This document shows, piece by piece, positions 9,013 to 11,841 of a DNA stretch of 23,374 nt. The DNA is from a virus. Under the pieces are notes generated by a model. The model was given only the letters and a program-made list of their open reading frames with translations. It ran no database searches and was not told the DNA's origin. The stretch is taken from the UHGV virus genome UHGV-0281963; one strand, given 5' to 3'. The translations under genes were made by a program, and so were the position numbers. How positions within the stretch are numbered: the first letter of the stretch is position 1; every line of letters starts with the position of its first letter.

Positions 9013-9327
9013 ATGCGCATTTTTAAAAACGCCTGGTTTGAGCGATTTGCACGCAAAAACAAAATATCCGACCAGTCACTGCGCGAAATTGTTAAACAGG
9101 CTGATAACGGGCTTATCTCAGCAAACCTGGGTAACGGCGTTATCAAGCAACGTCTGCCACGAGTCGGTGGCGGCAAATCTGGCGGTTATCGCACAATCAT
9201 TTTCTATCGCGTCGGCACAAGGGCCTTTTTCGTATATGCATACGCAAAAAATGAACGTGAAAATATAACCGCTACTGAGGAAGTGCATTTCGGAAGGGGC
9301 TCCTCACGTACTCAATCTAACAGATGA
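9013..9327 (+). CDS. RelE/ParE-superfamily toxin (Gp49/HigB-like)
   Basis: MRIFKNAWFERFARKNKISDQSLREIVKQADNGL...GGGKSGGYRTIIFYRVGTRAFFVYAYAKNERENITATE fits the RelE/ParE-like killer-protein pattern; toxin-first order with a downstream HTH antitoxin is the HigBA-type arrangement. The ORF track offers an upstream start at 8950; I prefer ATG 9013. Confidence 0.7.
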   Translation: MRIFKNAWFERFARKNKISDQSLREIVKQADNGLISANLGNGVIKQRLPRVGGGKSGGYRTIIFYRVGTRAFFVYAYAKNERENITATEEVHFGRGSSRTQSNR

Positions 9328-9374
9328 ACAACTGGCACAACTGATTCTACAGGGTCAGTTTACGGAGGTACCCA

Positions 9375-9692
9375 ATGAGTAAAAATTACCGCAGTGATGC
9401 GCTTGCATCCGTACATGAAATGATGGAATCGCTTCATGATATCGGCGCAGTAACGAAACAGACTATGCGAGAATTCGATGAAACTTGTCTCCAGCCAGCG
9501 CCGGTAATGTCTCCGGAAAGGATCCGTGCACTGCGCGAACGAGAGCATCTGTCTCAACCTGTTTTTGCCAGATACCTCAACGTCAGTAAAAACCTGATAT
9601 CAGACTGGGAACGTGGTGTAAAACGGCCGGGAGGTGCCGCTCTTCGCCTTCTTTCAGTCGTAGAGAAAAACGGAATCCAGGTAATATCATGA
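9375..9692 (+). CDS. HTH (XRE-like) antitoxin/transcriptional regulator, partner of the upstream toxin
   Basis: 105 aa; RBS GGAGG before ATG 9375; helix-turn-helix-like segment LSQPVFARYLNVSKNLISDWERG; 47-bp gap from the toxin stop. Confidence 0.7.
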   Translation: MSKNYRSDALASVHEMMESLHDIGAVTKQTMREFDETCLQPAPVMSPERIRALREREHLSQPVFARYLNVSKNLISDWERGVKRPGGAALRLLSVVEKNGIQVIS

Positions 9693-9706
9693 TACTCCAA
9701 TACAAC

Positions 9707-9728
9707 AAAACCCGCCGAAGCGGGTTTT
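9707..9728. terminator. bidirectional rho-independent terminator between convergent toxin operons
   Basis: aaaacccgc-cgaa-gcgggtttt: GC stem flanked by A-run on one side and T-run on the other; lies between the plus operon (ends 9692) and the minus operon (ends 9743). Confidence 0.6.
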
Positions 9729-9742
9729 CATTAGAAGCACCT

Positions 9743-10228
9743 TTAGTTTTGCTGTTCTATTTTAAGCTTGATAGTTTCATACAAAACAATAGTTGCGCCT
9801 GTTTTACATAATTCCCGGCTGTCATACGCACGAGACCAATAACACAACCAGTTCTCGAGATCTTCTCGAGTATAGGTTTTGCAGGCCAGTCCCTCTGCCA
9901 TTTCCACGATTTCATCGCCTGGTGCTGTTAACTCATAGCCATTCAACAACAAGAAGACATAACCAGCCATCATAGCTGTTCGTTTGTTTGCATTAGCAAA
10001 TGGATGATTCTGAATCAGACTTTCAATCAATACTGATGCCAGTACAAACATGTCATTAGTCTGTTCATACCATCGAACCATGCTGGGACGAGACTGAGAA
10101 GAACTTAAATTATCAACACTCAGCACACTAACAGGTTCATCTGGTGTTTGAAGCTCAATTAAAAGGCGATTAATTTCGGTAAGATCATCAAACGAAAGGT
10201 AGTGCACTCCTTCAACAATCTCAGCCAT
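9743..10228 (-). CDS. doc: Doc-family toxin (Fic/Doc fold)
   Basis: Motif HPFANANKRTA matches the Doc-type Fic motif (HxFx[D/N][A/G]NKR). ATG at 10228-10226 (MAEIVEG...); the ORF-track start at 10237 is a TTG. Confidence 0.75.
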   Translation of the reverse strand: MAEIVEGVHYLSFDDLTEINRLLIELQTPDEPVSVLSVDNLSSSQSRPSMVRWYEQTNDMFVLASVLIESLIQNHPFANANKRTAMMAGYVFLLLNGYELTAPGDEIVEMAEGLACKTYTREDLENWLCYWSRAYDSRELCKTGATIVLYETIKLKIEQQN

Positions 10229-10246
10229 AGAGCACAATACCCATCA

Positions 10247-10426
10247 TTACACTTTTGAAAGTTCTTCCATTGCCTTCTCGTAACGAGAAAAACCGAAATC
10301 GAAAGCATTTTTCACCTGCTCACGATGAGTGCAATTTTCATCGATAGCCGGGCGCGGAGCTGCCACAACGCTTTTATCGCGAGGGGGAATAGTCAATCGC
10401 GGGTGTTTTTTTAGTGCGTAGCTCAT
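10247..10426 (-). CDS. putative antitoxin of the Doc module (small ORF immediately upstream)
   Basis: 59-74 aa ORF ending 18 nt before the Doc ATG; RBS AAGGG before ATG 10426; imperfect palindrome aggctaatg...catagcct (10490-10513) in its upstream region. No recognisable Phd similarity; role inferred from position. Confidence 0.45.
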   Translation of the reverse strand: MSYALKKHPRLTIPPRDKSVVAAPRPAIDENCTHREQVKNAFDFGFSRYEKAMEELSKV

Positions 10427-10544
10427 TGGGTGTACCCTTACTTCTCCGTCCTGTTCTTTAACAAAAATCAAGTCAATACAAAATTAGTCAGGCTAATGTT
10501 GTTAGCATAGCCTAATACCGATCGTATTCACAACCACAGTACGT

Positions 10545-10567
10545 GAAAAAACCCGCCGAAGCGGGTT
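10545..10567 (-). terminator. rho-independent terminator (minus-strand orientation) downstream of hok
   Basis: aaaaaacccgc-cgaa-gcgggtt; same 18-bp core as the 9707-9728 hairpin. Confidence 0.5.
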
Positions 10568-10635
10568 AAGTGCGGGTGCGTTGAGGATGCCTGACACATC
10601 AGAGGTGGCGAGGGATTTCTCCCTCGCCTGGTCTC

Positions 10636-10791
10636 TTACTCCTCAGGTTCGTAAGCTGTGAAGACAGTGACCTCCGTCTGGCCGGTTCGGATTCGTACCT
10701 CGCAGAGGTCTTTCCTCGTTACCAGTGCCGTCACAATGACGGTAATACAGATGACGATCAGGGCGACTAACATCGCCTTTTGCTGCTTCAT
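10636..10791 (-). CDS. hokD: Hok/Gef-family type I toxin (HokD/RelF-like)
   Basis: MKQQKAMLVALIVICITVIVTALVTRKDLCEVRIRTGQTEVTVFTAYEPEE (51 aa) is near-identical to HokD/RelF as I recall it; RBS AGGAGA before ATG 10791. An in-frame upstream ATG at 10848 would add 19 residues (70 aa total). Confidence 0.8.
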   Translation of the reverse strand: MKQQKAMLVALIVICITVIVTALVTRKDLCEVRIRTGQTEVTVFTAYEPEE

Positions 10792-11036
10792 AGCCTGCTT
10801 CTCCTTGCCTTTCGGCGCGTAAGAGGCTAACCTACATGTGTCTAGCATGAAATTGGCCTCAGATTAATGTTAGGCGTCTTGCAGGACGCGTAATGTTAAC
10901 TGGGGCTTTTCTCTGTCTGCCTTACGGTGGCATGCCCGAGGCAGACAGCCTCAAGCACCCGCAGCAATTCTACTTAACTCTCGCTTTACCGCAAACCGTT
11001 TTTACCCGATATGGGAATTCCCATATCGTAATGAAT

Positions 11037-11141
11037 TCAGTTCCCTAGTCGATCCATCAAAAACACAACCAGGCAGTAAACGCCCACAACAGCAATAACA
11101 GCCAGCGCACCTTCCATTGCCAGTGATATATCATCCGACAT
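11037..11141 (-). CDS. small hydrophobic peptide (34 aa)
   Basis: Below the ORF-track size cutoff; found by reading the minus strand: strong RBS GGAGGG (rc of 11145-11150) then ATG 11141; MSDDISLAMEGALAVIAVVGVYCLVVFLMDRLGN. Confidence 0.35.
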   Translation of the reverse strand: MSDDISLAMEGALAVIAVVGVYCLVVFLMDRLGN

Positions 11142-11176
11142 ATTCCCTCCTTTGGTGTTAATCCCGGCGAACGTTT

Positions 11177-11260
11177 TTACCCCCACCGACAAATAACATA
11201 TACTAAAAAAGTGATAGCCATAGCAACGCCTGTAATTGCAAATGCTTCAGGCCAGTTCAT
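11177..11260 (-). CDS. small hydrophobic peptide (27 aa), translationally coupled to the upstream gene
   Basis: ATG 11260-11258 overlaps the stop of the DUF551 gene (ATGA), preceded by GGAGG; MNWPEAFAITGVAMAITFLVYVICRWG. Confidence 0.4.
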   Translation of the reverse strand: MNWPEAFAITGVAMAITFLVYVICRWG

Positions 11261-11841
11261 TGGCGCACCTCCTGCGGCGGTTCTGGTAGCGGCATCCAGT
11301 CGGTTACATTGCGGCTCTGTGTTTCGAAAAATTCATCACCATCACGGACTACATCAAAAAACTCACCGTCTCGATATTGCGCATAAAGAACGAATGCGCC
11401 ATCACATAAAATAATTACGTGCTGACCGTCATCCGGCATTCGCTCACTACAGCTTATCCAACCATCCAGAGTTACCGGATGGTTGGTTGACGTTTCCGAG
11501 ATTTCCCGAAAATTATTGGTTGACGAACCCTTCTTTTCCCGAAAGTTTCCAGCCTGAAGCATGGCGGCGCTGTCTGGCGGGGCAGCATATAGCGGCACGT
11601 ATATTTCCGGTTCCTTATCAGCACCGGGTTGCTCTTCCAGTGAGAATGTCTTTCCGGTAAATCGATTCATATAAAGCACGGGCTCTGCTTCCAGCGAAGC
11701 CTGAGCAACAAGGGCCAGTGCTAAATCCAACTCAATTGCCTCGAGAGAATTTTTGAATGCTGTCTGTTTTACTGCAAATTTCATCGCCTTTACATTTTCA
11801 CTAACATGACTGATTAACTGCTCTTTTGTAAAAGTGGTCAT
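11257..11841 (-). CDS. DUF551-domain phage protein
   Basis: C-terminal region ...HVIILCDGAFVLYAQYRDGEFFDVVRDGDEFFETQSRNVTDWMPLPEPP matches the DUF551 pattern common in lambdoid early regions (family from memory); preferred start ATG 11841 with AAGGAG 6 nt upstream. Confidence 0.65.
   Translation of the reverse strand: MTTFTKEQLISHVSENVKAMKFAVKQTAFKNSLEAIELDLALALVAQASLEAEPVLYMNRFTGKTFSLEEQPGADKEPEIYVPLYAAPPDSAAMLQAGNFREKKGSSTNNFREISETSTNHPVTLDGWISCSERMPDDGQHVIILCDGAFVLYAQYRDGEFFDVVRDGDEFFETQSRNVTDWMPLPEPPQEVRQ

Follow-up and report, generated by a model that had tools for sequence, protein, structure and literature searches.

Several small membrane proteins of enterobacteria, including MgrB, AcrZ, MgtS, KdpF, CydX and PmrR, are 25 to 50 amino acids (aa) long, consist of a single hydrophobic helix, have strong Shine-Dalgarno (SD) sequences, often escape annotation and bind a larger membrane protein. 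Here we describe two open reading frames (ORFs), pep1 (27 aa) and pep2 (34 aa), in the virus genome UHGV-0281963, a stretch of 23,374 nucleotides (nt) referred to as the window throughout, which represents the early-right operon of an E. coli lambdoid (lambda-like) prophage. They resemble these regulators in size, helix and SD strength, without sequence similarity to them in any library; both are prophage-borne, and the likeness would be one of mode of action, not of family membership. Type I toxins (Hok/Gef, TisB, DinQ, ShoB, Ldr and Ibs) also share shortness and hydrophobicity with pep1 and pep2, which lie beside a true Hok locus; however, no antisense RNA, translation-blocking leader or toxicity signal was found for either peptide. 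The closest described relative is XECs145 (ECs_5710) of prophage Sp6 in E. coli O157:H7 Sakai, which is identical to pep2 in its amino acids and occurs in the same order (DUF551 gene, pep1, pep2, mok/hok). We consider it about 60% probable that pep1 and pep2 are real small genes of the prophage, each encoding a single-helix inner-membrane microprotein. They do not constitute a new type of system, as small hydrophobic accessory genes are to be expected in phage early regions.

Both ORFs are located on the minus strand. pep1 (positions 11177..11260) reads ATG AAC TGG ... TGG GGG TAA and encodes MNWPEAFAITGVAMAITFLVYVICRWG, with a transmembrane helix predicted at residues 6-24; pep2 (11037..11141) encodes MSDDISLAMEGALAVIAVVGVYCLVVFLMDRLGN, with an acidic N-terminal tail and a transmembrane helix predicted at residues 11-29. 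A sequence-only reading of the window had proposed two tiny ORFs of these lengths here, and both are indeed present. A GGAGG (11268..11272, minus strand) lies 7 nt ahead of the pep1 ATG, inside the Q-E-V codons of the C-terminus of the DUF551 gene, and the ATG overlaps the TGA stop of that gene (11257-11259) as an ATGA tetranucleotide, as had been read. Such an ATGA stop/start overlap behind an SD sequence is the classic arrangement for termination-reinitiation. The GGAGG of pep2 (11146..11150, minus strand) is found 4 nt ahead of its ATG, with AAGGAG 5 nt ahead; AAAGGAGGG ends 4 nt ahead of the same ATG. Both sites had been credited with ideal spacing; this needs a small correction, as the spacing at pep2 is slightly under the optimum but inside the usual range. 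Since pep2 starts 35 nt past the pep1 stop, it is not overlap-coupled. In a minimum free energy fold, its SD sequence is partly paired, and its AUG sits in a weak AU-rich hairpin. The 23.4-kb window contains ten GGAGG-N4-9-ATG sites, counting both strands. ORFs of 25 aa or more begin at seven of these, namely at pep1, pep2 and five positions at or within annotated genes, as against a mean of 1.29 in 200 shuffles. The start signals of pep1 and pep2 are above background. A 51-aa pep2 starting at TTG (11037-11192) was rejected: it has no SD sequence, it begins within pep1, and the diverged homologues described below start at the helix.

Relatives of these short peptides were gathered through alignments and through the 51-aa TTG-extended frame. 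pep1 was found by tblastn in 92 phage records, including 933W, VT1-Sakai, VT2-Sakai, BP-4795, Min27 and YYZ-2008. Plasmids contribute a further 196 records with pep1, for the most part non-mobilisable ones from Escherichia and Salmonella in the size range of phage-plasmids, and each of two IMG/VR scans gave more than 430 relatives. Among 185,579 species (one genome each), pep1 occurs in Escherichia and Shigella only, apart from short contigs resembling contamination. These off-genus sequences, on very short or metagenome-assembled contigs labelled Segatella copri, Xanthomonas pisi and Pseudobdellovibrionaceae (L089, L090, L094), most likely reflect E. coli or phage contamination of the assemblies.

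The 170 retrieved copies of pep1 comprise 43 distinct DNA and 22 distinct protein versions, all of 27 codons except for a 25-codon form in which W26 has become a stop (seven loci, including L042). Residues M1, W3, P4, A6, G11, I23, C24 and R25 are invariant among the 22 protein variants, giving invariant motifs at both ends. Variable sites number 13, 14 and 23 of 28 at the first, second and third codon positions, respectively (third versus others, Fisher p = 0.004). The ratio of nonsynonymous to synonymous polymorphism (pN/pS) is 0.28 in frame as compared to 0.99 and 1.77 in the other forward frames, and none of 500 column permutations preserving the relatedness of the sequences matched the in-frame value. 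For pep2, with 13 distinct DNA versions, pN/pS is 0.22, a value reached by 3 of 500 column permutations, and four synonymous codons are in use for Arg31. Comparison of these variants thus provides strong support for purifying selection on both amino acid sequences. The selection is frame-specific, and start, stop and length are conserved, as is generally asked of a small gene; conservation of the frames across prophages had been named by the sequence-only reading as a check. A common pep1 variant, MIWPEAFAITGVAIAIDFLVYVICRWG (L052 and 33 other IMG/VR loci), carries Asp at position 17, in the middle of the predicted membrane helix.

The coupled start of pep1 is a constant feature. In 169/169 copies having enough upstream sequence, the ATGA at which pep1 starts spans the stop codon of the ORF before it, and a GGAGG lies within 16 nt upstream in 156 of these 169 loci (20 of 25 distinct upstream strings). 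At least four unrelated gene ends precede it: ..PEPPQEV[RN]Q (DUF551), ..IEQ[KE]VN[QR] (933W p77 type), ..S[VA]ED[VI]LR and ..AVWRLE[AV]R. Being kept behind at least four unrelated gene ends, pep1 is a portable, overlap-coupled terminal cistron rather than an appendage of the DUF551 gene. The proposed coupling of both ORFs to the DUF551 gene therefore holds in part: pep1 is overlap-coupled, but to whichever gene precedes it, and pep2 is not. pep1 is on the pR side in the window; in 933W, WGPS2 and PhiR12 it occupies the pL side, ahead of xis/int or of hokW. In this respect, pep1 and pep2 resemble the ‘moron’-like genes of lambdoid phages (nin, exo-xis/b), likewise residing in mosaic, dispensable parts of the early operons and moving between pL-distal and pR-distal positions. 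However, pep1 lacks its own promoter and terminator and is invariably overlap-coupled to the gene before it. Both peptides are absent from lambda (after ea22) and from K-12 CPS-53 (around the DUF551 gene yfdS). One phage-plasmid copy of pep1 shows a TAATG overlap in place of ATGA; it is carried behind a different gene by pF719-4 (L181 1685-1807), a 92-kb non-mobilisable E. coli plasmid, in which a further unannotated hydrophobic ORF of 40 aa is located about 100 nt past pep1.

pep1 is not called by the Prokaryotic Genome Annotation Pipeline (PGAP) in the records inspected (among them the E. coli AST198 locus, phage 933W and O157 Sakai Sp6), although it has occasionally been annotated by submitters (e.g. 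ASL59204.1). Full-text searches found no literature on pep1 and nothing relevant for the RefSeq accession, locus tag or peptide strings of pep2, and neither peptide appears in the supplements of the Enterobacteriaceae microproteome preprint. For pep2, an annotation and published evidence of translation already exist; pep1 is a conserved gene missed by PGAP in the records inspected, even in the medically important Shiga-toxin (Stx) phages 933W and Sakai Sp6. The results offer an annotation fix and a lead in Stx-phage biology, and they extend the short list of membrane microproteins encoded by phages by two concrete candidates.

pep2 corresponds to RefSeq WP_001278450.1 (hypothetical protein, PGAP), ECs_5710 of Sakai Sp6 and the ribosome profiling (RIBOseq) ORF XECs145, and is also in UniRef. 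The translation signal that had been proposed as a check has been published for pep2: XECs145 is a RIBOseq-positive intergenic ORF of O157:H7 Sakai (Huecker et al. 2017, PMC5597208). In lysogeny broth, it gave a transcriptome value of 79 and a translatome value of 346 reads per kilobase per million mapped reads, with a ribosome-coverage value (RCV) of 4.35 and a coverage of 0.99; in brain heart infusion, the RCV was 1.14 (PMC5597208). In the same study, PredictProtein classified it as an inner-membrane protein with one helix (PMC5597208). XECs145 was listed as 54 aa, compared with the 34 aa of pep2, under a rule taking the farthest upstream non-canonical (rare) start codon (PMC5597208). The SD-backed ATG gives 34 aa, matching the current RefSeq entry. 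In healthy Sakai cultures, pep2 ranks with the better-translated small ORFs.

Close relatives of pep2 are few. A word-indexed and an exhaustive HMMER search of 1.84 billion protein representatives yielded E. coli sequences only, at an identity of at least 78% and with seven cluster representatives in all. Diverged versions of 29-30 aa (44-50% identity) occur in phages Tritos, mEp460_ev081, Evi and HannyBb. In the three inspected (Tritos, mEp460_ev081 and HannyBb), they start at GTG behind AGGAGG, keep ..A.AV.A.YCL..VLMD[RH]LSD (Tritos: ..AIAAVMAIYCLAVVLMDRLSD) and lie directly upstream of the hok promoter (3/3), with pep1 absent in all; their upstream neighbour is a divergent gene in Tritos and mEp460_ev081 but not in HannyBb. 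Together, pep1 and pep2 form a block that occupies 1467 places in complete E. coli genomes; 672 of the 5426 genomes (~12%) carry it, with a median of two copies. E. coli O55:H7 RM12579 (L177 608-819) carries a tandem duplication of pep2 with a 107-nt unit, in which the second copy has a TTG start and has lost its GGAGG; the junction is at GGGAA, common to the SD sequence and the ORF end. A few public assemblies (P0024, P0028, P0029) contain 74-aa in-frame fusions of pep1 and pep2, caused by a one-base length change in the T6 (~11203-11208) or G5 (11180-11184) run of pep1, which could be a sequencing error or real slippage.

The membrane character read from the sequence is borne out by hydropathy. 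Over windows of 19 residues, the Kyte-Doolittle score peaks at 2.32 in pep1 (residues 6-24) and at 2.72 in pep2 (residues 11-29), with one such segment per peptide and both well over the usual transmembrane threshold. AlphaFold2 models pep2 as one continuous helix (residues 2-33; mean predicted local distance difference test score 89.3). No family match was obtained for pep1 or pep2 in Pfam, PHROGs, NCBIfam or PADLOC, only sub-threshold matches of hydrophobic stretches.

A mode of action can be proposed from these features. Both microproteins would be expressed from the early operon, pep1 being translated through termination-reinitiation coupling to the upstream gene, by way of the ATGA overlap behind GGAGG, and pep2 from its own GGAGG. 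Each peptide may then insert as a single transmembrane helix, probably in an N-out/C-in orientation, judging from the charge distribution: the N-tail is acidic and the helix is followed by an Arg. In pep1, the helix is flanked by E5 and R25; in pep2, D3, D4 and E10 precede the helix and D30-R31 follow it. Small phage coat proteins with acidic N-tails insert in this orientation. By analogy with the small membrane regulators, the mechanism is most likely the packing of each helix against a larger membrane protein rather than killing of the cell. Helix-helix packing would fit the invariant helix-end motifs and G11 in pep1 and the A14/A17/G20 face in pep2. Candidate contacts are W3, P4, A6, G11, I23, C24 and R25 in pep1, and the small-residue face A14, A17 and G/A20 in pep2. 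Candidate roles include early lytic or lysogenic host modulation, superinfection exclusion and cooperation with Hok.

Several observations weigh against assigning both ORFs to membrane microproteins. In POCJ13 (Shigella phage; L002 1501-1590), codon 3 of pep1 has changed from TGG to TAG, the last two residues of pep1 are missing in the seven loci with the 25-codon form, and pep2 lacks its last two residues (32 aa) in two loci (L032/L035). Many of the 170 loci are near-identical, so that the effective samples are smaller than the counts. No homology was found between either peptide and any characterised small membrane protein. The Sakai RIBOseq study considered intergenic ORFs from 30 aa upward, leaving the 27-aa pep1 outside its scope, and XECs145 overlaps just the last 22 nt of pep1. 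In addition, pN/pS is also lowish in the antisense frame sharing the wobble position (0.37 for pep1, 0.34 for pep2), so that the codon test alone cannot fix the strand. The strand assignment is based instead on the start/SD/stop architecture and on the stranded RIBOseq data, and for pep1 on the architecture.

The sequence-only reading had suggested that the peptides could be toxin-like or regulatory. A regulatory role is a possible, candidate reading. It is unlikely, in our view, that pep1 and/or pep2 damage the inner membrane in the way type I toxins do, or serve as small lysis helpers, when the early operon is switched on. Their size and hydrophobicity do match those of type I toxins, the hok gene is immediately adjacent, and a hok leader lies downstream of pep1 on the same strand in 113 of the 157 loci with enough downstream sequence. 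Moreover, hokW-sokW of Sp5 aids lysis and phage release after mitomycin C (Takada et al. 2021, PMC8621323), which makes membrane-active early products plausible at such a position. However, of the sequence-level features defining type I systems, only the small hydrophobic peptide was found, not the RNA antitoxin with its own promoter and terminator, nor low translation: Rfam shows no antisense RNA beyond hok/sok, no plus-strand terminator was found, and plus-strand promoter-like matches are at the level of shuffled sequence (3 versus 1.9), which leaves a small chance of a novel RNA. The strong SD sequences and coupled translation are unlike the repressed translation of type I toxins, and pep2 is heavily translated in exponentially growing Sakai cells without harm. 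On inspection, the peptides have no cationic or amphipathic C-terminal tail as is typical of TisB, DinQ and Hok-type toxins. No Hok-family match was found in Pfam, PHROGs or NCBIfam at E <= 1, and no homology to Hok was seen by sequence inspection. Both peptides also lie outside the lysis cassette (holin, lysozyme and Rz; ~window 278-1825), about 8-10 kb away. The suggestion of a toxin was thus not supported. A holin or pinholin was rejected, considering the early-operon position, the lengths of 27 and 34 aa versus the 60-150 aa, with at least one transmembrane domain, usual for holins, and a location that is not beside the endolysin.

Adjacency to hok, pointed out in the sequence-only reading, is real and recurs in relatives. 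The type I toxin-antitoxin module hokD/sok (10636..10960, minus strand) is a neighbour and no part of the two peptides; it comprises hok (10636-10791), mok (10636-10848) and a leader with the sok target (10786-10960; Rfam model sok, 116.9 bits). A putative hok promoter, TTTGCG-17 nt-TAGAAT (10967..10995, minus strand), was read from the sequence, with a transcript start near 10960, and in phage Tritos a promoter scan found the homologous site, TTGGCG-17-TAGAAT. The end of pep2 is 36 nt short of the putative -35 hexamer and 76 nt short of position 10960, at which the leader starts. As this promoter is downstream of pep2, pep2 would be outside the hok transcript. A role as a hok leader peptide or upstream ORF was rejected on this ground and because its amino acid sequence is under purifying selection.

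Could the peptides nevertheless be accessory to the hok module, modulating Hok insertion or toxicity, or could their translation control read-through into the hok leader and so couple hok to prophage induction? We regard this as rather improbable, even though linked loci of three recurrent kinds are seen: the stop of pep1 directly adjoins the hok promoter in 31 loci (the 933W/Sp5 arrangement), pep2 sits between pep1 and hok in 69, and a rho-independent terminator separates pep1 from hok in 11. In the two remaining loci, the hok leader is 280-310 nt downstream of pep1 with neither pep2 nor a terminator between. pep2 and pep2-like ORFs were found only directly upstream of the hok promoter, even with a divergent upstream neighbour and without pep1, and in two loci hok has been replaced yet pep2 and a promoter remnant are kept. 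However, 44 of the 157 pep1 loci have no hok nearby, pep1 being followed by xis/int-side or other genes, and most hok-like places in E. coli are without either peptide (14645 places match the wider region versus 1467 for the peptide block). Shared descent of a mosaic block may explain the linkage, and hok has its own promoter and a well-described control at the RNA level. The linkage is therefore suggestive but not obligatory. The narrower proposal, that pep1 and pep2 are partners of the prophage Hok, gating its insertion or activity or acting as a protein-level brake, is a longer shot again. If true, pep1/pep2 and hok/sok would form a three-part membrane module timing depolarisation and lysis during Stx-phage induction. 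Takada et al. (2021, PMC8621323) do not mention the ORF upstream of hokW; the recurrent position of the peptides at the hok promoter offers a specific and cheap hypothesis for the hokW/Sp5 experimental system.

In the class with a terminator (L143 ~1285-1330 and ten similar loci), the element CCCCGGA...TCCGGGGTTTTT directly follows pep1, making pep1 the last cistron of the operon in that class.

To the idea that the peptides themselves are inert, their ORFs persisting for a cis effect of translation (e.g. preventing Rho polarity at the operon end) or drifting as young neutral ORFs, we give no more credence than to an accessory function for hok. It would agree with the very narrow taxonomic range of pep1 among the species representatives, with the seven cluster representatives of pep2, with the occasional nonsense and truncated copies, and with the homopolymer indels joining both ORFs in some assemblies. 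Evidence against it comes from the amino acid-level purifying selection in both peptides, from the invariant motifs at the two ends of pep1 and its fixed length, and from the maintenance of pep1 behind several unrelated genes and in two operons (pL and pR).

That pep1 and pep2 are chance ORFs, conserved on account of a plus-strand gene or an RNA or DNA element, is very improbable. In its favour, 41/43 variants keep the wobble-sharing antisense frame of pep1 open and a 67-aa plus-strand ORF (11211-11414) overlaps pep1, but this ORF starts at GTG, is mostly antisense to the Pfam-supported DUF551 gene and was set aside as an antisense shadow of pep1 and that gene, pep2 faces no plus-strand ORF of 20 aa or more save for a 12-nt end overlap, start, SD and stop are conserved for the minus-strand frames only, XECs145 shares its listed strand with the adjacent Sakai prophage genes, and Rfam has no RNA family here, with a fold z-score of the region of only -2.2, too modest for an explanation by RNA structure.

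A perfect 22-bp palindrome, CGATATGGGAATTCCCATATCG (11007..11028), with a central EcoRI site, is located past the stop of pep2 and ahead of the hok -35 hexamer, and it travels with pep2. A terminator function was rejected for this palindrome, which has no U-tract and shows uncompensated single changes in relatives. An 11-nt direct repeat, GGGTAAAAACG, at 11172-11182 and 10997-11007 brackets pep2, and in 933W the pep1 stop is joined straight to the hok promoter at the direct-repeat sequence. Because of the flanking repeat and the direct join in 933W, the pep2 cassette (SD sequence, ORF and palindrome) looks like a 175-nt insertion or deletion at microhomology relative to 933W.

Over the tested stretch, the window shares 100% identity with a prophage of E. 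coli AST198. The minus-strand operon runs in the order cII, an O-like gene, a DnaC-like ATPase gene, DUF1627, DUF977, DUF551, pep1 and pep2, so that the two ORFs form the promoter-distal end of the replication-gene block, just ahead of the separately promoted hok/sok. The DUF551-domain gene (11257..11841, minus strand, with the PGAP start; open frame to 11901) was assigned from Pfam PF04448 (E = 1.1e-20) and the PGAP annotation of the AST198 locus. Beyond pep2 follow hokD/mok/sok, a phd/doc-like pair, a divergent relE/HTH pair, ORF6N, Bro, ninB-ninH, Q and the lysis genes. Just past hok, at 10546-10627 on the minus strand and around the 3' end of the hok mRNA, Rfam showed a match to isrK of 31.2 bits, below the gathering score of 50. 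The nin region (9114-10960) contains three toxin-antitoxin modules in a row, namely hokD/sok, the phd/doc-like pair beside it (9743-10426, minus strand) and the divergent RelE/ParE toxin with its HTH antitoxin (9114-9692, plus strand).

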